Assembly (NCBI GenBank): GCA_020845475.1
Contig: JADLFN010000026.1
Location: forward strand, 7,080-71,079
DNA: 64,000 nt
Direction of reading: 5' to 3'
Source of the DNA: Planctomycetota bacterium
GTDB lineage: Bacteria; Planctomycetota; UBA8742; UBA2392
Part shown: positions 2,230 to 27,085 of the stretch, piece by piece
Layout: the number at the start of each line of letters is the position of its first letter
Position numbering within the stretch: position 1 is the first letter of the stretch
Notes under the pieces: generated by a model
Database searches by the model: none
What the model was told of the DNA's origin: nothing
What the model saw: only the letters and a program-made list of their open reading frames with translations
Program-made: the position numbers and the translations under genes

Positions 2230-3303
2230 ATGGCAACAACTAAGCGTGAACTATTTATTCAGGACGAGCTTGGCGACGAACACGTAGTCGTCCCATTCAA
2301 GTACGCGATAACCAGTTACGGTGCCGACTACGACGTCCGCGGCATTGTGCACAGAATTAAGGACGAGGACATTTACGTACCGCGATTTCAGCGCGGCTAT
2401 GTGTGGAACTACCATCAAGCGTCGCGATTTATTGAGACGCTCTTGCTCGGCTTACCGGTACCGGGCATTTTCTTGGCCCGCGAGGCAGAGACAAATCGAC
2501 TTTTGGTCGTAGATGGTCAACAACGACTGAAGACCTTGCTCTTCTTCTATGAGGGCGTGTTTGGACCAAATGAGCGGGCGTTCTCGCTAGTTGACGTTCA
2601 GGAACAATTTGAAGGACTCTCCTACAAGAAGCTTGATCAGCAGGACCGCCGCCGCCTTGACGACTCAATCCTGCACGCCACGGTTATCAAGCAAGACGTT
2701 CCCTCGGAGGATGACAGTAGCATCTACCACGTGTTCGAGAGGCTGAACACAGGTGGTACGCGATTGCAGCCCCAAGAAATACGGGCCTGTATCTACCACG
2801 GAGAATTTAATGAAGCCCTAGATGATCTAAACAAGACGAAATCCTGGCGATCGATCTTTGGCGCTGTAAACAAACGGATGAGAGACAAGGAGTTGATCCT
2901 GCGCTACTTTGCGTTGCTTTACCACTCCAACAGCTATAAGCGCCCAATGGTCGAATTCCTCAACCGGTACATGGGTGCCAATCGACATCTCCAGAAGCAA
3001 CAGTTTGGACAACTAAGGACTGACTTCGTCGAAGTAATTGACATCGTATTCGAATCGGTCGGGAAACGTGCATTCAAGCCCGAGCGCGCATTCAATGCCG
3101 CCGTGTTCGACTCGGTCATGGTCGGCATTTCCAGGCGCCTGAGCAACGGGCGAATTAGCAAGATTACAGATGTTGGCAGCAAGTACCGTGAACTGATCAA
3201 AGATGCAGATTTTCAGGAGGTATGCAGCACTTCGACCTCTCAAGAGGATCGCCTCGAAAAGAGACTGAAGATCGCGACAAGGTACTTTCACGAGGTCGAT
3301 TAG
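2230..3303 (+). CDS. DUF262 (ParB/GmrSD N-terminal-like) domain protein
   Basis: 357 aa. PRFQRGYVWNYHQASRFIETLLLGLPVPGIFL...LLVVDGQQRLKTL matches the DUF262 signature including DGQQRL. No DUF1524/HNH C-terminal domain is seen. The gene is more AT-rich than its flanks by eye. Confidence 0.85.
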   Translation: MATTKRELFIQDELGDEHVVVPFKYAITSYGADYDVRGIVHRIKDEDIYVPRFQRGYVWNYHQASRFIETLLLGLPVPGIFLAREAETNRLLVVDGQQRLKTLLFFYEGVFGPNERAFSLVDVQEQFEGLSYKKLDQQDRRRLDDSILHATVIKQDVPSEDDSSIYHVFERLNTGGTRLQPQEIRACIYHGEFNEALDDLNKTKSWRSIFGAVNKRMRDKELILRYFALLYHSNSYKRPMVEFLNRYMGANRHLQKQQFGQLRTDFVEVIDIVFESVGKRAFKPERAFNAAVFDSVMVGISRRLSNGRISKITDVGSKYRELIKDADFQEVCSTSTSQEDRLEKRLKIATRYFHEVD

Positions 3304-3974: not shown

Positions 3975-5237
3975 TTGAGGCTTTCCTTGGCTTCTAAATC
4001 GATCCTGGCGCTTTTCGCCCTGTGTGCCGCTTTGCTGGCGGCTTCCACGCTGGCTGCTGCTACTTTGAACGTGACGCTCAGCGGCGCCTCGCCCGCGAAC
4101 TTCGAAAACCGGCTCAGCGACACTTCCATTGAGGTCACGCGCTTTGTGCTAACCTCAACTGGCGCTTCCGTGGATTGTTCGGCCGTGACTATCACGTTTA
4201 CGAACCCAACCACGGCCGACGAAGCTTTCACCGCCGTGCGCGTGTTCTATGACGCCAACGGCAACTCCAGTTTCGAAGCCGGCGAAGAAATCGGCGTCGG
4301 CCAGGCGCCCAACGGCGTAGCCGCGACACTGTTGTTCACCGGCGCGTTCAGCGTGCCCACCAGTTCGCGCCTGATGCAGGTGATTGTCAACACCGGCGCC
4401 AATGTGGCCAGTTACGGCGACGGGTTTCGTTTCAGCATCGCGGCGGCTGGCGATATCACGCTGGCGAATCCCGGCACCGATAGCGTCACGGGTGCGTTTC
4501 CCGTTCAAGGGAACACGATCACCATCCGCAACAGCATGTCCAATCTGCTGGCGGGCACGGGCAATCCCGCATCGCCGCGCACCGTGGCTCGCGGAAGCAC
4601 CAACGTTGCCGGGGCGCACTTTCGCCTTGACTGTCTGGCGGCCGTGATTCCCGGCGAGCTGGTAGGTCTTGACCTGTCAAGCATCACCGTCAGCCTCAAC
4701 CTCGGCGCACCCGCCGATGCCAACGTGATTGCTTCGGTCAGCCTGTTCGGCGACGATTTCGATGCCGCGTTTGAGCCCAACACACAAGACCCGCTGATCC
4801 AGGCGCGCACCAGCGCCGACGTCGCCAAGTGGGCGGTGGCCGGCAGCACCTTGACGGTCATCTTCGACGGCGCGGCTGTCACGGCGCTTACTTCGATCAA
4901 TTCGGGCACCGTGCGCGCCTTCTGGATTGGCGTGAGTTTCAACAGCACGGCCGACGCTGTCGTGGAAGTGCTGGTCAATCGCACCGGAATTCTCGGGGCC
5001 GAAGGCGCAAGCGGCGATTTCCTGACCACCGCGATCACCAGCATCAGCGGCAACGTGATTACCGTCAGTGGAAGCGGCGGCGGCGGAGGTGACGGCGGCC
5101 AGGGCAATCGGCCCTCGGAAGAGGGCGGCTGTGTTGTCTCCCCCACTGGCTCATGGGCGCCGGGGATGTTGCTTTGCATGCTGGCGGCGGGCTTCTGGTT
5201 TGTGCGTAAGCGTAGCCGGCCCAATTCCACTACTTAG
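3975..5237 (+). CDS. secreted protein of unknown function with a Gly-run/Cys/TM/basic C-terminal tail
   Basis: Track ORF 3798..5237 (GTG). The signal-peptide-like stretch SKSILALFALCAALLAASTLAAA follows an in-frame TTG at 3975, so the start is uncertain. Tail: SGSGGGGGDGGQGNRPSEEGGC-VVSPTGSWAPGMLLCMLAAGFWFV-RKRSR. Confidence 0.6.
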   Translation: MRLSLASKSILALFALCAALLAASTLAAATLNVTLSGASPANFENRLSDTSIEVTRFVLTSTGASVDCSAVTITFTNPTTADEAFTAVRVFYDANGNSSFEAGEEIGVGQAPNGVAATLLFTGAFSVPTSSRLMQVIVNTGANVASYGDGFRFSIAAAGDITLANPGTDSVTGAFPVQGNTITIRNSMSNLLAGTGNPASPRTVARGSTNVAGAHFRLDCLAAVIPGELVGLDLSSITVSLNLGAPADANVIASVSLFGDDFDAAFEPNTQDPLIQARTSADVAKWAVAGSTLTVIFDGAAVTALTSINSGTVRAFWIGVSFNSTADAVVEVLVNRTGILGAEGASGDFLTTAITSISGNVITVSGSGGGGGDGGQGNRPSEEGGCVVSPTGSWAPGMLLCMLAAGFWFVRKRSRPNSTT

Positions 5238-5263: not shown

Positions 5264-6235
5264 ATGAAAGCCACAGCGTTGGGATTGCTGGCCTTGGCGA
5301 GCGTGTTGTTTGCTGGCTCGCTTAGCGCCGTCGCCGTCGGGGAAATGGGCCCCGATTTCAAGTTCGACAAGAGCTGGAACACAATTGAGGGCGCGACCAA
5401 GCTCTCTGACTACCGTGAGCGCGTGGTACTCGTTGAACGATGGGCCACGAACTGAAGCCCCTGCATGCGCGGGGTCCCGCACTTGAATGAACTGAACAAG
5501 AAATACCGCGAACGCGGCTTCGAGATTGTTGCCGTAAGCAGTGAAGCCGCCGGCACCATTGAAGACAAGATGGTCAAAGGGGCAAGCGCCTCCTTTGGAG
5601 TTGTGAAGGCCGATATTGCAGCCCTGTACCAGACCAACGGCATCCCCCACGGCTGGGTTCTTGACGCCGAGGGAAAGTGCATCTGGGAAGGCCACCCGGC
5701 CCAGTTGAACGATGCACAGATCGAAGAGTGGATCAAGGATCTCGCCCCCGGCAAGATCACGCGCGAGGTTCAAAAGCCGCTAAAGGCGTCCGTTGAGGCC
5801 TACAACAAGGGCCAGTTCGGAAAGGCCTTTGAAGCCGTGGCTGAGCACCTGACGTCTGAGGACGCAAAAGTCAAAGCTGACGCTGAATATGTCAACGGCG
5901 TGATCGAGAAGCGCAAAGCAGCAGGCGAGGCCAAGGCCAAGAAACTGCGCGACGCCGGCGATCTCGTCAAGCTGCTGCCGGTCCTTGAAGAAGAGGCCAA
6001 GGGCTGGGAAGGCAGCGAATACGGCAAGGCCTGCGGCGACGAAGCCAAGACGGTCAAGGCGAGCAAGGAATACAAGCTCTGCGCCAAAGCCGCCGACGCA
6101 TGGGCCAAGCTCGAGCCCAAGCTCAATGACCTTGCCGACGACAAAGCCGCCAAGGCGCTTGAGAAGTTCATCAAAGATTTCGCCGGAACGCCCCAGGCCA
6201 AGCTTGCCGAAGAGAGACTCAAAGACCTCAAATAG
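5264..6235 (+). CDS. periplasmic thioredoxin-fold (TlpA/ResA/redoxin-like) protein, predicted selenoprotein with UGA-Sec at 5453..5455 (U-S-P-C)
   Basis: ORFs 5264..5455 and 5465..6235 share a frame and are separated only by TGA agc ccc tgc. The read-through LSDYRERVVLVERWATN-U-SPC-MRGVPHLNELNKKYRERGFEIVAVS aligns with the FWATWCxPC redoxin motif. There is a signal peptide (MKATALGLLALASVLFAGSLSA) and a GGAGAGG Shine-Dalgarno-like sequence upstream. Confidence 0.8.
5458..5474 (+). promoter_or_regulatory. candidate bacterial SECIS-like hairpin 3 nt downstream of the UGA
   Basis: CCCCUG-CAUG-CG(C)GGGG: pairs 5458-5474, 5459-5473, 5460-5472, 5461-5471, 5462-5469 (GU), 5463-5468; loop 5464..5467. 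The same CUG-CAUG-CGG core follows the paralogue's UGA. Confidence 0.4.
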
Positions 6236-6249
6236 CCGGTGATTCAACG

Positions 6250-6282
6250 CGCCCGCCGGCAAAAGAGCTGGCGGGCGTTTTC
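6250..6282 (+). terminator. rho-independent terminator after the first selenoprotein gene
   Basis: CGCCCGCC (6250..6257) pairs with GGCGGGCG (6270..6277) and is followed by TTTT. Confidence 0.7.
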
Positions 6283-6307: not shown

Positions 6308-7282
6308 ATGAAGACGATGTTTCTAGCCGCGTGTTTGGCGCTGTACGCCACGACGCTTGCGGCCATGGACAAGGGCGAAGAAGCTCCCAACTTCAAGTTC
6401 GAGGCAAGCTGGAACACACTGCCCGGCGCGAAGCAGCTCACGGATTACCGCGGCAGAATTGTATTCCTCGAGATCTGGAAGATTCACTGAGAGCCCTGCA
6501 TGCGGTTTCTCCCGCACCTCGTTGAGGTAAATGAGAAGTATCGCGACAAAGGCGTCGAAATCATCATGGCCACGGACGTTGACAAGGCGCCCGAGCTTGA
6601 GAAATTCATCGCTGATAAGAAGCTCAAGCTTGGCGTCGCGCGCGTTGTGGACGTCTACAAGCTCGTCAAGGCCCAGGGCTACCCCACCAGCTACGGCATC
6701 GACGTTGACGGCAACTGCATCTGGCGCGGCCACCCGCAGGGGCTGAACGACGCGTTAGTGGATGGCTGGCTCAAAGACCTGCGCGCGCCCAAGATCCCGC
6801 GCAAGCTCAGTGATGCGCTTGGCGCGGCTGTGAGCGCATACGACAACGGCCAGTACGGTGGAGCGCTCAATGCGCTCGAAAAGCCGCTCAAACACAAGGA
6901 CGAGAAGGTCAAGGCTGACGCGCAGTACATCGCCGATCTGCTCAACGGCCGCCTCGAGATGAACAAGGCTGCCGCCAAGATCTACCGCGACAGCGGCGAA
7001 CTGGAGAAGCTCGTGGCGCTGCTCGAGGGCGACGCCAAGGACTTTGGCGGTATCGACTACGCCAAAGATTGCGCCAGCGAAGCCAAGAAGACCAAGGCCA
7101 GCAAGGCCTACAAGCAATGCGTCGAAGCGCGCGAGAAACTGGAGAAGCTGAAGCCCGGCCTCAAAGACATGAAGCCCGCAGATGCCGCCAAGGCCCTCAA
7201 CAAGCTCGCGAAAGAATTCGCCGATACGCCCGCAGGCAAGCAGGCCGCAGAATTGGCCAAGGAATACGAAGAGAAAAAGTAG
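6308..7282 (+). CDS. paralogous periplasmic thioredoxin-fold protein, predicted selenoprotein with UGA-Sec at 6488..6490 (U-E-P-C)
   Basis: ORFs 6239..6490 and 6500..7282 share a frame. Read-through: LTDYRGRIVFLEIWKIH-U-EPC-MRFLPHLVEVNEKYRDKGVEIIMATD. The likely start is ATG 6308 (MKTMFLAACLALYATTLAA signal peptide). It has the same C-terminal Lys/Ala/Glu-rich helical domain as 5264..6235. Confidence 0.8.
6491..6511 (+). promoter_or_regulatory. candidate bacterial SECIS-like hairpin immediately after the UGA
   Basis: GAG-cc-CUG-CAUG-CGG-uuu-CUC: outer pairs 6491-6511, 6492-6510, 6493-6509; inner pairs 6496-6505, 6497-6504 (GU), 6498-6503; loop 6499..6502. Confidence 0.4.
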
Positions 7283-7349: not shown

Positions 7350-7994
7350 ATGCCTTTGAAACTCAATGAAATCGAACGCCGCGTTCTGGGCACGCTGATT
7401 GAGAAGTGGCTCACGACGCCGCAGGCCTACCCACTCTCGCTCAATGCGCTGACCAACGGCTGCAACCAGAAATCGGCGCGCGACCCCGAAACCAGTTACA
7501 CCGAGCAACAAGTTGAGCAAACCTGCATGAGCCTGAAAACGCGCTCGCTCGCCATGCAGTTCTTCGGCGCCGGCGCGCGCGTTTCAAAGTGGGAAGAGGC
7601 GCTGAGCGCCACGATGCACCTCGGCAAGGACGAAGTAGCCGTGCTGGCCGAGCTCATGCTGCGCGGCCCGCAAAGCGAAGGCGAGCTGCGCTCACGCGCC
7701 AGCCGCATGCACGATTTCCCAACGCTCGAATCCCTGCACGCCACACTCGAATCGCTGCGCACAAGGGCCGAGCCGCTGGTGCAAAGGCTGAGCGAAGAAG
7801 GCCGCACCCGCGGAGTACGCTGGGCCCACACGTTTTACGGAGAGGGCGAGAAGCTCCCCCAAGCCGCGCCGGAGGCCCCCACCACGGCATCAGGCAGCTT
7901 GAACGCAACAGCCGTGTCCCCCACTCTCGATCAGCGCCTCGCTGCGCTGGAAGCGCGCGTAGCCGAATTGGAGAGAAAGACGCTGGGGCTGTAA
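7350..7994 (+). CDS. yceH: YceH/DUF480 (UPF0502) family protein
   Basis: MPLKLNEIERRVLGTLIEKWLTTPQAYPLSLNALTNGCNQKSARDP...LMLRGPQSEGELRSRASRM matches the E. coli YceH pattern. ATG 7350 was chosen because ATG 7323 lies inside the palindrome. Confidence 0.8.
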   Translation: MPLKLNEIERRVLGTLIEKWLTTPQAYPLSLNALTNGCNQKSARDPETSYTEQQVEQTCMSLKTRSLAMQFFGAGARVSKWEEALSATMHLGKDEVAVLAELMLRGPQSEGELRSRASRMHDFPTLESLHATLESLRTRAEPLVQRLSEEGRTRGVRWAHTFYGEGEKLPQAAPEAPTTASGSLNATAVSPTLDQRLAALEARVAELERKTLGL

Positions 7995-19466: not shown

Positions 19467-20566
19467 CAGCGCTTGCCCTCCGCCAACGAAACCGCCTGGC
19501 CGGCCGCACGCAACGCCAGCGCTTCGCGCAAGGCGACCGCGCCTTCTTTGGCGTTGACTTGAACCGCCGCCGCTTCGCCACTCTCCGTGCGCGGCATCGC
19601 TTCCGTTACGCGCGCGAGGTCAAAGCCAAAGCCGACGGCCGGAACGTCAAGCCCATAGCGGTCGAAGAGCCGATCATAGCGGCCCCCACCGCCAAGGTCG
19701 TCGCCGACGCGCGGGTGGTAAATCTTGAACATCATGCCGCTGTAGTAGTTGAACTGGCGTACTTCGCCGAGGTCAAACAGTGGTGCAACGCCCGCGCCGG
19801 ACTCGCGCAACATCTGGGAGAGCTTTTCCAACTCATCGAGTGCGTGGCGCGCCGAGAGCATGGGCGCGATCTCCCTGGCACGCGCGATCACATCCGGCCC
19901 GCCGCACAGGCTGGGCAATTCGGCAAGCAGCGCTGTGCGCTGTTCGTCGAGGCCCCGGCGGTGCGCAAGCTCTTTGATGCGCGCCGCGTTTTTATGGTCG
20001 ATCGCTTCCAGCAGTGCACGGTCGCTCTTGCCCTTGTCGCCCAAGGCGGCTGCCACGAAACCGGCGTGGCCAACTACTGTGGTGGCATCTTTCAAGCCCA
20101 GCTCGGAAAGACACTCACTGGCAATGCACAGCGCGGCTGCATCGTGAACAATGCCGCGTGCGTTGACCCACTCGAGGCCGCGCTGCGATTGCTCAACACG
20201 CGCGCCGTGGCCCGCCGCCTGGAAGCGGAACACGCGGCCTTCATAGCTTGCACGAATCACGCGCAGCTCGCGGCGCAGCTCAATGGCAAGGGCCTTGGCA
20301 GCAATCAGCGTGAAATCCGCGCGCAGCGTAAGCCAGCGGCCCTCGCGATCCATGAAGCGATAGAGATCGGCGTCGTGCGCCTCGCCGCCTTCGAACGTGC
20401 GCCGATCATCAAATGAAGGCAACACGATATCGGTAAAGCCCCAGCCGCGCGAAACGCGCGCAATCGTGTCGCTCACCTGGGTGCGGCGCGCGGCCTGCGG
20501 CCCGAAGACAAGTTCGGTGCCGGGTGCAAAAGCCAGGTCGCGTGAACGAATGTGGGTGTCAGCCAT
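19466..20566 (-). CDS. hisZ: ATP phosphoribosyltransferase regulatory subunit (HisRS-like)
   Basis: Class-II aaRS-like core (YRFMDREGRWLTLRADFT..., GGGRYDRL). The stop overlaps the hisG start (TGATG). The start could be 20566 or 20602. Confidence 0.8.
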   Translation of the reverse strand: MADTHIRSRDLAFAPGTELVFGPQAARRTQVSDTIARVSRGWGFTDIVLPSFDDRRTFEGGEAHDADLYRFMDREGRWLTLRADFTLIAAKALAIELRRELRVIRASYEGRVFRFQAAGHGARVEQSQRGLEWVNARGIVHDAAALCIASECLSELGLKDATTVVGHAGFVAAALGDKGKSDRALLEAIDHKNAARIKELAHRRGLDEQRTALLAELPSLCGGPDVIARAREIAPMLSARHALDELEKLSQMLRESGAGVAPLFDLGEVRQFNYYSGMMFKIYHPRVGDDLGGGGRYDRLFDRYGLDVPAVGFGFDLARVTEAMPRTESGEAAAVQVNAKEGAVALREALALRAAGQAVSLAEGKR

Positions 20567-20611
20567 GTGCACTTGACTACTACACGTAACGAAATCGCGC
20601 AAGCAAGCGAG

Positions 20612-21067
20612 TTACCGCATCGTCATCAAGTGCTCGACGAGGGCCCGCATCTCTTCATTGGAAATCTGCTCGTAGGCGGGCATTTTTACGGCCGCATAGG
20701 CGCCATCATTGTGGTAGGTGCCCGGGTGGCCTTTGGGGTTACGGATGTGGGCATAGAACCAGCGTCGGGCTGCCAACTCGTCGCCGCTTTGGCGCGTGAG
20801 ATGTCGCGTGGCGGCCCCGCCCAGCGGCGGTCCGCCCAATCCTTCGCGCTGCAAAGAACGCGAATGACAGGTTCCGCAGGCATATTTCTTGAACACCTCG
20901 GATCCCTGCGCCGCCAGCGGGCCCTGCTCGGCCTGTGTAGGAAGGGCGGCAATTGCCATGGCAGCGCCTTCGTCGCCGCCCGCGGGCTTATTCGTGTTCG
21001 CGTTCGAGTTGCCACTGCACGCCGCGCAAAGCATGCACAGGATCAAACTGGCTATTCGCCCGACCAT
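20612..21067 (-). CDS. c-type cytochrome lipoprotein (class I, single CxxCH)
   Basis: 151 aa. Lipobox LCAACSG, haem-binding CGTCH and a distal Met region (VKMPAY). Confidence 0.75.
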   Translation of the reverse strand: MVGRIASLILCMLCAACSGNSNANTNKPAGGDEGAAMAIAALPTQAEQGPLAAQGSEVFKKYACGTCHSRSLQREGLGGPPLGGAATRHLTRQSGDELAARRWFYAHIRNPKGHPGTYHNDGAYAAVKMPAYEQISNEEMRALVEHLMTMR

Positions 21068-21648
21068 GGTCGCACCTCCACCGAGGGCCCCGGGTGCGGA
21101 CCCTCGTGCGGCAAAGAAAAGATGCGATCAAGATCCGCCCTGAAACCCAGCACACCCAGGGCAAACCTCAGGCCGCGAATCCCGATCGTCAACGGCTGCC
21201 ACATCATGTCGATCACATTGGCCAGTGTAAGGGTGATTTCCTTGTAGCTGTCATCTATCTGCGGCATCAACGGCGCAATCATGTAGTTGACCGTACGCCC
21301 CAGATCCAGCTCGTCATAGCGCAACAGCAGGTCGGCCTTACGCGCCTCGTTCTGCCGCCAGAGTGAAATCTGGCCGTTGCGGCTCCTGAGCCAAACCAAC
21401 GGAAGCGCATGGGAAGGGATGTCCGCGGCCGGATCTCCATCGAGATCATCGTCGTTTACAATGTGCGGCTCTCGCCCCTCCAGACGCTCAAGCTGTTCCC
21501 ATTCCCCTTTGACGATCTCGAATGCACTCATGAAAACGCTGTCGAGGTGGCCCTGCTGCCACTGCGCCTCGCTCAGGCCTTCCAGCAGTTTCAAGAGTTC
21601 CGTGCGCTGCCAGAGCGAGCGCTCGAACAGCGATTTGCGGTCAAGCAT
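21052..21648 (-). CDS. hypothetical cytoplasmic protein
   Basis: Open frame 21052..21696. ATG 21648 overlaps the upstream ATPase stop by 8 nt, and the 3' end overlaps the cytochrome c start by 16 nt. No domain recognised. Confidence 0.5.
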   Translation of the reverse strand: MLDRKSLFERSLWQRTELLKLLEGLSEAQWQQGHLDSVFMSAFEIVKGEWEQLERLEGREPHIVNDDDLDGDPAADIPSHALPLVWLRSRNGQISLWRQNEARKADLLLRYDELDLGRTVNYMIAPLMPQIDDSYKEITLTLANVIDMMWQPLTIGIRGLRFALGVLGFRADLDRIFSLPHEGPHPGPSVEVRPWSGE

Positions 21649-22378
21649 GCGCGGCCTCTGTGCCGGGGCGCCCTTCAATGCGCTCGATCGTGCCATCCTT
21701 GATGTGTACGACGCGATCAGCGCGGCTGGCCACGTTGGGCTCGTGCGTCACGACCACCAGGGTCATTCCGTGCTTGCTGCGCAGGCTGTCAAACAAGTCA
21801 AGAAGGATGCCCTCGGTGACGCTGTCCACGTTGCCGGTGGGTTCATCGGCCAGCAGCACCCGCGGGCGGTTGACGATGGCGCGGGCAATAGCCGCGCGCT
21901 GGCGCTCGCCGCCGCTGACCTTGCCGGGAATGTGGTGCACTCGGTGGGCGAGGCCTACTTCCTCAAGTGCGGCCCGGGCCAGCTTTTGCGCATCGCTGCG
22001 GCCGAATAATGGCAGGGCAACGTTGTCGAGCAACGTCAGGTGCGGCAGCAGATAGTGAAGCTGAAACACAAAGCCGATCTGCTCGAGACGAAACTTGGCG
22101 AGGTTGCGAACGCTGCGCAAATCGGTTCCGTGGTAAGCGACGCTGCCGCTTTGCGGTGTGTCGAGACTGCCAATGATGCTGAGCAAAGTGGACTTGCCGC
22201 TGCCCGATTTGCCCACAATGGCCAGCATTTCGCCCTGGAAGACGTCAAGTGATATTCCACTCACCGCGTTGACACCGCCGGGGTAAGTCTTGCACAGATC
22301 GCGCACGGCGATTGCAATCGCCCGCCCCGGGGGCGGCTGCGGCGGGGACTGCACAGTGGAAGTAGGCTCAAGCGTCAT
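21641..22378 (-). CDS. ABC transporter ATP-binding protein (LolD/MacB/FtsE-like)
   Basis: Walker A GKSGSGKST, signature VSGGERQR, Walker B LLADEPTGNVD. Start placed at ATG 22378 (MTLEPT...). Confidence 0.85.
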   Translation of the reverse strand: MTLEPTSTVQSPPQPPPGRAIAIAVRDLCKTYPGGVNAVSGISLDVFQGEMLAIVGKSGSGKSTLLSIIGSLDTPQSGSVAYHGTDLRSVRNLAKFRLEQIGFVFQLHYLLPHLTLLDNVALPLFGRSDAQKLARAALEEVGLAHRVHHIPGKVSGGERQRAAIARAIVNRPRVLLADEPTGNVDSVTEGILLDLFDSLRSKHGMTLVVVTHEPNVASRADRVVHIKDGTIERIEGRPGTEAAHA

Positions 22379-22565
22379 CGACGTATCCAAACACGTAAGG
22401 CAAAGTGTGGCAATTGGAATGAACTGAAGGCAAGGTTGAAACTTGTAGGGCGGGGCGTCAGGGCTTTCCGTTTGCACTTGACAGGGCTTGCGTTTCAGAC
22501 AGACAATCCCAGCTTCACTATTCGGGCTATCTCACTGCTCAACGCCGTGGATCGGTGGCACAGGT

Positions 22566-23927
22566 ATGGCGTCAAAAGAAGTCACTTTGCGTGCGGGCGA
22601 ATCGATGACGTTGCAGCTCGAGACGGCCGGCAAAATCTATCGCTTGAACCTGAGCCTGACTGAGCACGGCGTCAGCGTCTCCGCGCCCGCCGAGGCAAAA
22701 GTCGAATTGCACGCGGCTTCCGTGGCCGCTGCGCCGGGTCGCGGCCATGAGCGCTCGCAGCCGGCGGAAGAATCCGTGATAGAGTCGGACTTTCCTGTGG
22801 ACATTCCTGCCGATTCTGAATCTTCGCCCGTTGAGGTGCCGGAAGAATCGCACGACATGAGTGAAACGGATTTCTCGCTCGATGAAGAAGAAAGCCAGGA
22901 AGCCACAGCGCAGGATTTCACCGTCGCCCAGCAGCACGACTCAAGCATTGAAACGCCGGAGGATACGCTGGCGGGCGCAGAGAACTTTTCACTTACCGGC
23001 GTGCCCGGCGTATCGCACAGCGAAGAGATCACGCTTGATGAACCCGGCTTTTCAGATGAAGGCCTGACGATGGTGCCGCCATCACGCGGCTCGCGTTCGC
23101 CCCAGCCTGAACCTGAACCCGAGCCCCTTCTGGAAATGGAAGACAACGCGCAGCCGCTGGATGCGGTCAGCGCGACGCTATCCCCGGTTCGATTCCACGA
23201 CCCGGCCACAGACAATCTGGAGCAACCTGAAATGGAAGAGAAACGCCCCGCCGCGCCCGCTCCGCAACTCAAGAAACCTCTCGGGCCGGCACCGCGTCCT
23301 GGTCAACCTGCGCCACGCGCCGCTCAGCCGGCTCCGGTTCCCTCGGAGGAGCTTCCGCCGTGGACGGGTCGTGCGCGCGATTATCGCGATCCCAAACTTG
23401 AAGCCAAGAAGGCCGCGACGTCCAAGATCGACAAGAACGCGCTTGCCGCGCGGCAGCCCGCGCCCGAAGCGATGGAAGATCAGCCCCTTGACCTCGCGCT
23501 TGAGGATGAACCGGCTCCCGCCAAGCCCGTTGCGCCTGCGCCAAAACCTGCGCCGATCGCGGCCAAGCCGGCACCTGCAATTGCACCCAAGCCCGCGCCC
23601 ATTGCGGCCAAGCCTGCACCCGCGCCTGCACCCAAACCCGCGCCCGTAGCGGCCAAACCCGCTCCCGCTCCAGCAAAACCGGCGGCGCCGGCCAAAGCTG
23701 AAGGCAATTTCACCGTGTTCCTTTCACCGCCCAAAGGTGCGGACAAGAAACAGGCTGCGGCTGAAATCATCGCTGAAGTCCAGGGCATTGATATCAACGC
23801 GGCTACGCAGCTGGCCGGCAAAATGATTGTGCCCGTAGTGAAGGGCGTAACGGAGGAGGACGCAAACAAGGTGCGTGACCGCCTCAAGGATGCCGGGCTG
23901 TCGTGCCGTATCACCCAGAAGCGCTAA
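22566..23927 (+). CDS. hypothetical protein: small N-terminal domain, long acidic/Pro-Ala-Lys disordered linker, C-terminal L7/L12-CTD-like domain
   Basis: Start ATG 22566 (MASKEVTL...). The C-terminus FTVFLSPPKGADKKQAAAEIIAEVQGIDINAATQLAGKMIVPVVKGVTEEDANKVRDRLKDAGLSCRI parallels the pattern of ribosomal L7/L12 CTD ([64 protein letters not shown]). Confidence 0.6.
   Translation: MASKEVTLRAGESMTLQLETAGKIYRLNLSLTEHGVSVSAPAEAKVELHAASVAAAPGRGHERSQPAEESVIESDFPVDIPADSESSPVEVPEESHDMSETDFSLDEEESQEATAQDFTVAQQHDSSIETPEDTLAGAENFSLTGVPGVSHSEEITLDEPGFSDEGLTMVPPSRGSRSPQPEPEPEPLLEMEDNAQPLDAVSATLSPVRFHDPATDNLEQPEMEEKRPAAPAPQLKKPLGPAPRPGQPAPRAAQPAPVPSEELPPWTGRARDYRDPKLEAKKAATSKIDKNALAARQPAPEAMEDQPLDLALEDEPAPAKPVAPAPKPAPIAAKPAPAIAPKPAPIAAKPAPAPAPKPAPVAAKPAPAPAKPAAPAKAEGNFTVFLSPPKGADKKQAAAEIIAEVQGIDINAATQLAGKMIVPVVKGVTEEDANKVRDRLKDAGLSCRITQKR
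23521..23699 (+). repeat. imperfect tandem coding repeat (KPAPxAA units)
   Basis: It encodes AKPVAPAPKPAPIAAKPAPAIAPKPAPIAAKPAPAPAPKPAPVAAKPAPAPAKPAAPAKA inside the 22566..23927 CDS. Confidence 0.6.
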
Positions 23928-23937
23928 CGGGGAAACC

Positions 23938-24216
23938 ATGCAATTCCAACGCCATCCAGACGGTTCCGCCACGCTTGAAACGCCGCAAGGCTCGTTTAAG
24001 CTGACAGACACGGAATTCGACGACCTGCTCCACGCCGTGCCGATCAACACCACCGCGATGTACCGGTTGCTGAACGACACACTTGTGGAAGATGAGCCGC
24101 GCGTCGGAGAGTTTCGCAAGCTGTTGCAGGCGCTGATCAAAGCGGCCAACGGCAAAACGGATCCGGTAATGACCGAGATCCAGAATGAAGTGCTGAAGCA
24201 CGTGGAAGAACAATGA
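23938..24216 (+). CDS. small hypothetical protein (92 aa)
   Basis: ATG 23938 lies 10 nt after the upstream stop and is preceded by GGGGA. ATGA overlap with the next gene. Confidence 0.5.
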   Translation: MQFQRHPDGSATLETPQGSFKLTDTEFDDLLHAVPINTTAMYRLLNDTLVEDEPRVGEFRKLLQALIKAANGKTDPVMTEIQNEVLKHVEEQ

Positions 24217-25142
24217 CCGCAACGCTGCGCTGGAACAGGCTGTCCATTGCCGCCGATGGCGAAGAAGAATTCGTCAGCGCCGTCACCGAGTTTTTTCCTC
24301 AATTGCTCGAGTTGCCCTACGACGAACTCGAGATGGACATCACCAAGTCCAAAAACATTTCGGAAGATGCGTTCCGCAGTATCGCCATCAAGTTGGTATC
24401 GGGCGAAGCCTCGGACAAACGCATCCTGATCCGCATACCGGATCAAATGGAACGCTTTTTCCGCCACAGTTCGCTGTTTCGGGTAGTGGACGTGGACATT
24501 GTGCGGCGCATGACCGCCGACAAAAAAGACAAGTACACGCGCGAAATCATCAAGCGCAACATTGAGTCCGGCGAGATTGCAGTCGAGGCTGACGAGGTTC
24601 GTGAAGAGGAAATGGCCGCAGCAACGAGAGTTCCGGCCGCAGATCTCACCGAACGCGCAGGCTCCACCAAGCTCAAGCTTGGCGAAAGCGACGTAGATAC
24701 TGTCAGCAATCGCAAGAGTGTTTTCCCCACCGTCGGCGGCAACGGCGATTCCCAGGAGCCCGTCACGGAGCTCGCACCCGAAGCCGATGCCGCTAAGGGC
24801 AAGAAGCGCGACACGCAAGTCGCCGGCAAGTCGGATTTTGGCTGCCTCGTGGATGATGAAACGGGCAATCGCCACGAAGTCAAAGACAACATCGTGGTGG
24901 GCCGTGAAGCGCCGGCCTCCGTGCTGTACGCCATTCCCACCATCTCCAAGAGGCACTTCCAGATTCGCAAGCAGGCCGGAGGCTTCTTTATTGAAGACCT
25001 GCACTCGACCAACGGCACCTACCTGAATGGATTGCCGGTGCACGAACCGCAGCCATTGCGCGATGGCGACGAAATCGTAGTCGCCATTACGCTCAAGCAT
25101 CCCAAGGGCGCGCGCATTTTTCACTTCTCCACCAAGGCGTGA
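24213..25142 (+). CDS. FHA domain-containing protein
   Basis: C-terminal IVVGREAPASVLYAIPTISKRHFQIRKQAGGFFIEDLHSTNGTYLNGLPVHEPQPLRDGDEIVV is a canonical FHA pattern (G-R ... S-x-x-H ... S-T-N-G). The N-terminal ~200 aa is unrecognised. Confidence 0.8.
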   Translation: MTATLRWNRLSIAADGEEEFVSAVTEFFPQLLELPYDELEMDITKSKNISEDAFRSIAIKLVSGEASDKRILIRIPDQMERFFRHSSLFRVVDVDIVRRMTADKKDKYTREIIKRNIESGEIAVEADEVREEEMAAATRVPAADLTERAGSTKLKLGESDVDTVSNRKSVFPTVGGNGDSQEPVTELAPEADAAKGKKRDTQVAGKSDFGCLVDDETGNRHEVKDNIVVGREAPASVLYAIPTISKRHFQIRKQAGGFFIEDLHSTNGTYLNGLPVHEPQPLRDGDEIVVAITLKHPKGARIFHFSTKA

Positions 25143-25225
25143 ACCCGCGCGTGTTCGCCCCGTTTCTATGCTTGAGGCCCTAGCCGCGCGCTTGGGCCGG
25201 CGCTGGCCCCGGAAGGGGGCGATCT

Positions 25226-27085
25226 GTGCTGAAGCCGTTTGATTTCTACCGCAAGCCGCCACCCCAGAACTTCCAGCAGATGCTGTCGCGCGTTGTCGCT
25301 TTGGGTCTGGGCGTGTTGGCCATTGGCGGCATGGTCATGGTTTTTTCCGCCTACAGCCGAAGCGAGGTAAAGCAGGAGTGGAAGTGGGAACACCGCGACA
25401 TCCGCCGCAACTTCATGCCGATCTACAGTACGGAAGAGAATGACCGCCGCTTTAAAGAAGAGATCGACAAGACCAGCAAGTCCTTCGGCATGGAGACGCC
25501 TGACGCCCGGCCAAAGCCGCCCGAGAACAAGGAAGGGCCTCGCCTGCCGGGTGAAACAACTCCCCCGCCACGAACACCTGAAGAAGACGCGCCGCCGCCG
25601 GGAGATCCCGCAATAGAGCGCGAGGCGCGTGAGGTCAAACGGTTCCCTGAACTGACCCGGGGCCGCTGGCTCACCGTTGAAGAAGAAGTCGCGAACATTC
25701 CCACCTTCACGCCCTACCAGGATTGGCGCCCGCAGTTTCGCAGCCATTTGAAGTCGGAGTTTGACGCCAACGAAGGAAGGCAGGCCCCCGCTTATGAGCA
25801 ACTTTCCCTCAAGCTGCTGCAGCGGCTGCCCGCCACAGGCAAGCCCGGCCGCGACCAGTGGGACAGCAAGCTGGAGAAAGGCAAGTTCTGGTTCGGAGTC
25901 GGCAAGGAGGCAGTCAACTTCTATCGCGGGCGCGTGTTTGAAGCCGAGGGCCGCCTCTTTGACATCTACGAAGTCAAGCTGAAGCCCGCAGTGGTGCTTT
26001 CAGACGGTACGACCGTCGATCGATACTTCGAAGCTGTGGTTGCCTTTCTTCGACAGGGCAATGGCTTTGATGAAATGGCCGTGCACCAGCAGCAGGTTCT
26101 AGTTCACTTCGCCCAATGCCCCAAATCGTTGGAGCCTTTTCTCAATAGCAAAGGCGCAGTCGGCCACGAGGACGTGTTGTGCAAGCAGTCGGTTTACGTC
26201 AAATTCAGCGGGCTGTACCTCCGGAACTTCATCTACAACCGGCCCGTGGCGCCCTTTCACTCCACAGCCAAACCCGTTTATTGCCAGGCGTTTCTACCCA
26301 TGCTGCTGAGTGCTGATCTAGAGCGCAGCGAGCGTGACACTTACAGCCTCACCGACGAATTGTTGCAGCAGGTGCGTGATTCCACGCGCGAAGACATCAA
26401 TTACGTGCAGGATGAAGCCGCGTATTACGCAACACTGGCTCAGGCCAACATGCCAGGCGATGCGCCCAAGGTAGTACCCGAGATTAACTACTTCGACCTC
26501 GCCAACCAGGAAACGGGACCCAAGTATCGCGGCCAGGGCGTGCGCGTGTTCGGAATGCTGGGCGACAACTACGCACCTGTGATTCTGCCGCCCAACATCA
26601 GCGGCCTGCGACGCGTTTATCGCTGCTATGTGGCCGCGAGCATGACCGACATGGCCACGCCCAATCGCTGGCTTGTGGACATGATCGATCTGCCGCCGGG
26701 CCTCGAGGCGCGCGTCTCGGTGGCATTCAGCGGCCGCTATTATCGCAACGTGTTTGAAACGCAGGACAACCGCTCCATGATCCGGCCCTTGCTGGTTGTG
26801 CACCACGTAGAGCGCCACTACTCCAGCGATACCAGCCAGGACTGGATCTTCGCCGTCGTGCTCACCGGCCTCGCCACTATCATGATCGGTGGCATGGCAT
26901 GGTTCCTGTTCAGCGATCGGCGTGCGAGCAGCAAGTTTGAACAACAGAACATGGCGCGGCTGCGCGAGCGCATCCAGAAACAAGGCGGGTTCAAGCTCAA
27001 GCCCTTGCCAAACGACGCAAAGCCGCCCACGCCACCCGATACACCGCAAGCGGCATTGCCCACCCCTGAGAAACCGAAAGAGTAG
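25226..27085 (+). CDS. large bitopic membrane protein of unknown function
   Basis: 619 aa, GTG start preceded by GGAAGGGGG. N-terminal TM (VVALGLGVLAIGGMVMVF) and C-terminal TM (IFAVVLTGLATIMIGGMAWFLF), with a Pro-rich segment after TM1. Confidence 0.6.
   Translation: MLKPFDFYRKPPPQNFQQMLSRVVALGLGVLAIGGMVMVFSAYSRSEVKQEWKWEHRDIRRNFMPIYSTEENDRRFKEEIDKTSKSFGMETPDARPKPPENKEGPRLPGETTPPPRTPEEDAPPPGDPAIEREAREVKRFPELTRGRWLTVEEEVANIPTFTPYQDWRPQFRSHLKSEFDANEGRQAPAYEQLSLKLLQRLPATGKPGRDQWDSKLEKGKFWFGVGKEAVNFYRGRVFEAEGRLFDIYEVKLKPAVVLSDGTTVDRYFEAVVAFLRQGNGFDEMAVHQQQVLVHFAQCPKSLEPFLNSKGAVGHEDVLCKQSVYVKFSGLYLRNFIYNRPVAPFHSTAKPVYCQAFLPMLLSADLERSERDTYSLTDELLQQVRDSTREDINYVQDEAAYYATLAQANMPGDAPKVVPEINYFDLANQETGPKYRGQGVRVFGMLGDNYAPVILPPNISGLRRVYRCYVAASMTDMATPNRWLVDMIDLPPGLEARVSVAFSGRYYRNVFETQDNRSMIRPLLVVHHVERHYSSDTSQDWIFAVVLTGLATIMIGGMAWFLFSDRRASSKFEQQNMARLRERIQKQGGFKLKPLPNDAKPPTPPDTPQAALPTPEKPKE

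Follow-up and report, generated by a model that had tools for sequence, protein, structure and literature searches.

Two tandem genes for probable exported TlpA/ResA-type selenoproteins, truncated in public annotation, in a Planctomycetota contig

Based on the reading frames of a 64,000-nucleotide stretch of Planctomycetota DNA (GenBank assembly GCA_020845475.1, contig JADLFN010000026.1, positions 7,080 to 71,079; hereafter the window), combined with comparisons to related loci, protein families and structures, we propose that two adjacent genes, here called A and B, each encode one exported thiol-disulfide oxidoreductase of the TlpA/ResA type. In both, an in-frame UGA is predicted to be recoded as selenocysteine (Sec, U) and to supply the attacking residue of a UxxC redox motif, a reading to which we assign a probability of about 0.9. 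The preliminary description of the window had put forward this interpretation for gene A, and the present analysis supports it. Gene B, absent from that description, was found directly downstream of gene A.

The two open reading frames (ORFs) that make up gene A, 5264..5455 and 5465..6235, lie in one frame, as had been described, with only the TGA at 5453..5455 between them and agc ccc tgc atg as the next codons. Read through, the translation (...VVLVERWATN*SPCMRGVPHLNELNKKYRERGFEIVAVSS...) comprises 323 residues with the TGA as residue 64, and the Pfam matches AhpC-TSA (residues 25-101), Redoxin (25-98) and Thioredoxin_8 (53-138), all above their gathering thresholds, span this residue; in gene B, too, redoxin domains cross the TGA. 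The codon takes the place of the N-terminal cysteine of a TlpA/ResA-type CxxC motif (WATN-U-SPC), in agreement with the preliminary description, the aligned cysteine homologues reading WATWCGPCM. The truncation by gene callers that had been foreseen is likewise borne out: GenBank holds only a 256-amino-acid (aa) piece of gene A, 'hypothetical protein IT461_04765' (MCC6149542.1), and only a 260-aa fragment of gene B (MCC6149544.1, IT461_04775). The 256-aa downstream product and an identical 63-aa upstream fragment recur in SRR17347209, SRR15507657, SRR12897917 and SRR35845085, with TGA in each. The gene A TGA is hence neither chance nor a read error, as at least four independent SRA assemblies agree on it.

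Gene B is the strongest internal evidence for the Sec reading. A and B are diverged paralogues in which a single homologous codon is TGA in both copies, so that an error or a chance nonsense mutation is excluded, and a scan of the 64-kb window for in-frame TGA candidates returned genes A and B only. The terminator-like hairpin that separates them is very strong, suggesting that A and B are transcribed separately.

Homologues point in the same direction. A protein search yielded 22 clusters of 255-258 aa, each starting at the residue directly after UxxC, which is the signature of gene callers restarting past a stop, together with five clusters of full length (321-326 aa) in which the motif is WATW-C-GPC-M (P0013, P0014, P0015, P0017 and P0018). 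At the nucleotide level, Sec-type loci always have TGA, never TAA or TAG, in 14 distinct A-type and seven B-type contexts; these were drawn from several Planctomycetota metagenome-assembled genomes (MAGs) and many independent assemblies, and span 46-96% amino-acid identity. Selenoprotein genes are recognised by coding sequence conserved on both sides of an in-frame TGA, at least two cysteine homologues aligned to the TGA and a TGA kept in two or more different sequences (Zhang, Fomenko & Gladyshev 2005, PMC1088965). All of these were found here, the second in the five full-length clusters and the third in the 14 A-type and seven B-type sequences. In a scan of metagenome contigs, two of 21 matches were true family members.

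Cysteine (Cys) forms, with TGC or TGT as codon, are present at L047:4526, L048:4982, L049:1995 and L002:4300 (related locus and position). Those of L047, L048 and L049 were confirmed as positional orthologues of gene A, the first two through their identical place in a shared gene neighbourhood. A neighbour-joining tree nests the Cys forms at two points within the Sec A clade, and every B gene is Sec. This is the usual picture of Sec/Cys exchange, and it points to at least two switches. In some relatives, Sec and Cys copies stand side by side (L002:3184 and 4300, L047:4526 and 5580, L048:4982 and 6054), and L047 and L048 have Cys at the A position and Sec at the B position.

Recoding of UGA in bacteria is directed by a selenocysteine insertion sequence (SECIS), modelled as a hairpin with an apical loop of 3-9 nucleotides (nt) having G in its two leading positions, an upper stem no shorter than 4 base pairs (bp), a UGA-to-loop distance of 16-37 nt and a minimum free energy of at most -7.5 kcal/mol (PMC13188914). 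In a strict implementation, this model was fitted by 15 of the 21 Sec contexts, as against none of the seven Cys contexts and 12% of random window positions. For the family, the SECIS assignment is probable; in gene B it is firm, in gene A weak. The A-type hairpin spans the codons for x-Gly-Val-Pro-His, typically as GGGG-GUU-CCCC with extensions, and G21-U22 (the U of UGA being position 0) is the same in every A-type Sec gene; its distance from the UGA is presumably about that of G23-U24 in Escherichia coli fdhF. One stem pair covaries, being A-U in five, G-C in five and G-U in one, and a compensating change from G-C to C-G is seen in the stem register of gene A, where the Arg codon CGC pairs with the Pro codon CCG. 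Sec forms always encode G-V-P-H (GGN GUN CCN), whereas Cys forms encode x-I-P-H and lack the hairpin. In gene A itself, the apical loop of the candidate is GGUC (5473..5476), 17 nt past the TGA. In the Cys gene of L049, most of the A-type hairpin is kept (-17.7 kcal/mol), with the loop CAUU and not G-U, as if this gene had recently switched.

In gene B, the SECIS core lies 30 nt past the TGA, 12 nt further on than the A-type hairpin. The core hairpin has a free energy of -4.9 kcal/mol, and the extended structure, at -14.3 kcal/mol, conforms to all bacterial SECIS constraints. In the B-type set, 93.7% of cells are paired in the hairpin, compared with 27-52% when the partners are slid, and the only departure from an otherwise invariant hairpin is in L047, a compensatory change of C-G to G-C. 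RNAalifold, run on the A, B and pooled sets, recovered a tiny A core and the B hairpin only, with no structure common to A and B; of the whole-region folding z-scores, none was significant save that of the B core hairpin (z = -2.3).

The structural evidence is in agreement with the ResA/TlpA-like fold originally proposed. An AlphaFold2 model of the Cys orthologue P0014 (predicted local distance difference test score, pLDDT, 85) begins with a disordered signal peptide, which is followed by a thioredoxin domain and, at the C-terminus, by a domain of eight helices. In Foldseek comparisons, the thioredoxin domain matched ResA 2h1b, DsbE 3gl3 and Etrx2 4hqz with a probability of 1.00 and target-normalised template modelling (TM) scores of 0.65-0.74, those to ResA and DsbE being 0.72-0.74, and, as in the class at large, the fold has the TlpA-type insertion, with the [C/U]xxC motif at the N-terminus of helix 1. 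A signal peptide, also part of the preliminary description, was identified by inspection in A, B and all full-length homologues, hydrophobic and with an A-x-A-like end, and provides the export signal or membrane anchor expected of the class.

Taken together with the family assignment, this allows a catalytic scheme to be outlined. The G-U-loop hairpin, 17 nt (A) or 30 nt (B) past the UGA, would recruit SelB with Sec-tRNA(Sec), such that Sec is inserted and termination does not take place, and the protein would then be exported by the Sec (secretory) pathway. Outside the cytoplasm, the selenolate could attack substrate disulfides or oxidised thiols, giving a selenenylsulfide that would be resolved by the Cys three residues on. 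The redox centre would be re-reduced by a membrane reductant of the CcdA/DsbD type, while holding the substrate or a partner is the probable role of the C-terminal TPR-like domain.

Several observations weigh against this reading. The gene A hairpin, although fitting in loop, stem and spacing, reaches only -6.6 kcal/mol (z = -0.6) and so misses the -7.5 kcal/mol threshold, and it competes with an alternative hairpin. Synonymous sites past the TGA show no raised conservation in A-type genes (0.55 versus 0.56 overall) and only a mild rise in B-type genes, a test that is weak probably because of the strong codon bias (G+C at third codon positions, GC3, about 0.75). Rfam searches at gathering and permissive thresholds returned no SECIS family, the sub-threshold matches being to the terminator hairpin between A and B only. 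With respect to the machinery, Pfam detected no SelA, SelB or SelD among 50 ORFs of the 64-kb window, ARAGORN found no tRNA, and hence no tRNA-Sec, in the window and 21 related loci, and the flanks of those 21 loci contain no selA, selB or selD. The substrate and electron donor of the scheme, moreover, are inferred from the family only. With an Aquifex SelD query (taken from a PDB alignment), the 120 best matches listed were all Aquifex-like and none was named Planctomycetota. In favour of the reading, some Planctomycetes have a documented full Sec machinery (PMC4807772).

That the UGA is read through as a residue other than Sec, i.e. as Cys by a tRNA-Sec-like tRNA(Cys) with SelB, as Trp by near-cognate decoding or under a reassigned code, is very unlikely. 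The inserted residue cannot be told from sequence alone, and natural Sec-to-Cys recoding systems exist. However, TGA is the commonest ordinary stop in the window, terminating 19 of the 37 Pfam-supported genes, which excludes a reassigned code; the position of the catalytic Cys is conserved, whereas Trp there would inactivate the enzyme; a system that inserts Cys would bring no gain over the TGC codon of the sister lineages; and the hairpins show the G-U loop expected for SelB binding. We consider it highly improbable, too, that translation mostly terminates at the UGA, with A and B as decaying Sec genes in a lineage that lacks Sec decoding. In favour of decay, the SECIS of gene A is the weakest in the family and fails the model threshold, and its motif has drifted from WATW-U-GPC to WATN-U-SPC; against this, A and B are intact, without further stops or frameshifts, in all sampled strains of the lineage, the same genome holds the good SECIS of gene B, and the gene A stem carries the compensating change described above.

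Sequencing or assembly errors and inactivating mutations show up in MAG contigs most commonly as a lone in-frame stop, but the probability that the TGA marks such an error or a pseudogene is negligible here, given the independent assemblies of the same sequence, the TGA in all 21 distinct homologous contexts, tandem paralogue included, and a constraint upstream of the stop that equals the constraint downstream. For the 38 codons before and the 38 after the TGA, amino-acid identity is 0.67 and 0.68, and divergence at codon positions 1+2 relative to that at position 3 is 0.45 and 0.46; these near-identical values indicate equal purifying selection on both halves. Two real genes, one for a secreted peptide of 63 aa and one for a protein of 256 aa with its start at ATG 5465, would match the gene-caller annotation of the locus, and ATG or GTG follows UxxC in all A-type genes, but this arrangement has next to no chance of being correct. 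The thioredoxin-fold domain would be divided between the ORFs, and the downstream product would be left with neither signal peptide nor active site. Visual inspection upstream of 5465 and 6500 revealed no Shine-Dalgarno-like sequence; in four of the seven B-type genes, UxxC is followed by ATC or ATT, leaving the downstream ORF with no start there; and the Cys orthologues are single proteins of 321-326 aa. Pseudogene, sequencing error, two separate genes and genetic-code reassignment were all rejected.

The C-terminal domain, which the preliminary description was unable to place, can now be placed in part. In the NCBIfam family NF041382 ('VPGUxxT thioredoxin-like (seleno)protein, type 1'), the C-terminal half is homologous to it, with expect values (E) of 8e-18 for A (profile positions 173-344) and 1e-15 for B, and the domain alone retrieved P0103, a protein that scores 430 bits to NF041382. 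Among PDB folds, the domain of gene A has no counterpart under E 0.2, the best matches being the TPR domain of YbgF 2xev (E 0.23) and BamD. An exhaustive search of 1.84 billion proteins recovered the domain in only 16 representative clusters, one of which is the bona fide NF041382 member P0103; most of the 16 are about 255-260 aa long. This is the length expected of gene-caller-truncated Sec proteins, and the rare module therefore seems to accompany Sec thioredoxin-fold domains. The helical domain also contains a Cys pair (by hand-derived coordinates 6014..6016 and 6080..6082 in A, GKAC...EYKLC, and 7070..7072 and 7118..7120 in B, AKDC...AYKQC), which is conserved in gene B and the closest A-type clade and replaced by W and T/C in the other clade, and which may form a structural disulfide between helices.

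Comparison with established families assigns A and B to a known class without making them members of any curated NCBIfam model. No NCBIfam model reached its cut-off on protein A or B. NF041382 shares with them the succession of a Sec thioredoxin-like domain and a helical one of about 170 aa, but A and B score 65 and 57 bits against its cut-off of 350, their N-terminal domain has no match in the profile, and their motif is WAT[WNT]-U-xPC or WKIH-U-EPC (UxxC) instead of VPGUxxT. NF041054 (WAxxUGC_long) is a TlpA/ResA-like selenoprotein of similar length (354 aa) with a W-A-x-x-U context; here the scores are 30 and 16 bits for a cut-off of 300, and the motif of A and B is U-x-x-C, not U-G-C. The proteins resemble ResA, TlpA, DsbE (CcmG) and Etrx (PDB 2h1b, 1st9, 3gl3, 4hqz) in fold and export signal, in the position of the CxxC after beta-1 in a W-A-x-W-C-x-P-C context and, from the alignment, in the G-I-P of the cis-Pro region, and differ from them in Sec for the nucleophilic Cys, in the extra C-terminal domain and in having no cytochrome c maturation genes nearby. 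The model of ResA proper (NF002854, cut-off 170 bits) gives 72 bits for A and 69 for B. CnoX (YbbN), a cytoplasmic chaperedoxin without CxxC and without Sec, has a thioredoxin domain fused to a TPR domain. A and B share with it the order of a thioredoxin fold and a TPR-type helical domain that could hold clients, which is an analogy and not membership, and structurally a very weak one, the TPR-like matches to the C-terminal domain of A having E of 0.2 or more.

The closest described group comprises the UxxC selenoproteins reported in 2005 from the Sargasso Sea metagenome as 'thiol-disulfide isomerase-like protein' (TlpA-like cd02966 / Thioredoxin_8; PMC1088965), which are also listed in PMC9312934 and PMC13188914; the 'UGC-containing TlpA' and 'VPGUxxT' families likewise stand in current catalogues. 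As in A and B, the Sargasso proteins have a TlpA-like fold, Sec as the first residue of UxxC, widespread Cys homologues and database-truncated genes; unlike them, A and B have an extra helical C-terminal domain of 160 aa, originate from Planctomycetota and occur as tandem Sec paralogues. Judged by domain and motif, A and B belong to the UxxC TlpA-like class, the putative link to the Sargasso family being drawn from shared domain class and motif. Alternatively, though we regard this as rather doubtful, they may represent a distinct, uncatalogued family, in which an exported Sec-TlpA is combined with the rare TPR-like domain, found mainly in one Planctomycetota lineage, almost always Sec and tandem-duplicated. 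The helical domain, shared with the VPGUxxT family, would then be a dedicated client-binding module of extracytoplasmic selenoenzymes, resembling a periplasmic 'chaperedoxin', and the client might be the invariably adjacent 416-aa surface protein with its Cys-containing sorting tail.

Since UxxC TlpA-like selenoproteins have been known since 2005, this kind of protein is not new and selenoprotein biology is unchanged by A and B, which we regard as a genuine but unsurprising selenoprotein pair missed by public annotation. Their predicted identity nevertheless calls for an annotation fix, as MCC6149542.1, MCC6149544.1 and, in metagenome catalogues, dozens of comparable fragments would represent full-length exported selenoenzymes. 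Catalogues appear to have a blind spot here, most of the 16 clusters with the C-terminal domain having the length of a protein started after UxxC. The family also constitutes a natural experiment, with Sec and Cys orthologues in one neighbourhood, at least two apparent Sec/Cys switches and two candidate SECIS solutions in tandem paralogues, and should be useful for studying Sec retention in extracytoplasmic redox enzymes. The coordinates of the features are collected in Table 1.

Table 1. Features of the selenoprotein locus (positions in the window)
Feature	Position	Strand	Details
Conserved upstream neighbour, 416-aa secreted protein	3987..5237	+	C-terminal GGC + transmembrane + RKR tail
Gene A, predicted complete selenoprotein gene	5264..6235	+	323 codons + TAG (6233..6235); sole interruption TGA 5453
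Gene A signal peptide MKATALGLLALASVLFAGSLSA	5264..5329	+	Cleavage predicted after LSA; read from the sequence by inspection
Gene A predicted Sec codon TGA	5453..5455	+	Position 1 of the U-S-P-C redox motif, 5453..5464
Gene A candidate SECIS core	5467..5482	+	G5469-C5480, C5470-G5479, G5471-C5478, G5472-C5477, plus G5467-C5482
Gene A C-terminal all-helical, weakly TPR-like domain	5759..6232	+	AlphaFold2 model of the domain alone, pLDDT 94.9, 8 helices
Intrinsic-terminator-like hairpin between A and B	6249..6278	+	12 bp stem, 10 G-C pairs, then T-run
Gene B, tandem paralogue of A	6308..7282	+	324 codons + TAG; about 45% amino-acid identity to A; same architecture
Gene B predicted Sec codon TGA	6488..6490	+	Position 1 of U-E-P-C; context WKIH-U-EPC-M; aligns with the gene A TGA
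Gene B candidate SECIS	6502..6544	+	Core 6516..6528, ACCUC-GUU-GAGGU, loop GUU; lower stem lineage-specific

The gene immediately upstream of gene A, encoding a protein of 403-416 aa, is present in every related locus long enough to show it. In the window, neither Pfam nor NCBIfam matches the 416-aa product, which to the eye looks beta-rich with two similar halves, followed by a Gly-rich linker and the tail GGC-VVSPTGSWAPGMLLCMLAAGFWFV-RKRS, which we take to resemble a sorting signal of the MYXO-CTERM or GlyGly-CTERM type. It is the sole recurring neighbour without an assigned function and may be a partner of the selenoproteins. In L047 and L048, the order of genes is DHDPS, then, after an interval, the 403-416-aa protein, A, B, DUF480, a peptide ABC transporter and PrkA. 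The DUF480 (YceH-like) gene, at 7350..7994 (+) in the window, always comes after the selenoprotein gene or genes and before the peptide ABC transporter, PrkA, a TPR protein and a heptosyltransferase, and this block from DUF480 to the heptosyltransferase is conserved, with no evident link to the redox proteins.

Elsewhere in the window, the region 20552..25262 contains ORFs of lower GC3 (0.63-0.66), and a Pfam scan of two of these ORFs, 22637..23272 and 23724..25262, gave no match. Between DHDPS and the 416-aa gene, the window carries a restriction-type GmrSD_N (DUF262) gene at 2230..3303 (+) with a lower GC3 of 0.62. Other cargo occupies the same spot in related loci, namely Rep_1 and Transglut_core in L032 (L032:1..8263) and phage-tail-like Collar genes in L035 and L036, and the interval from DHDPS to the 416-aa gene looks like a variable insertion hotspot.

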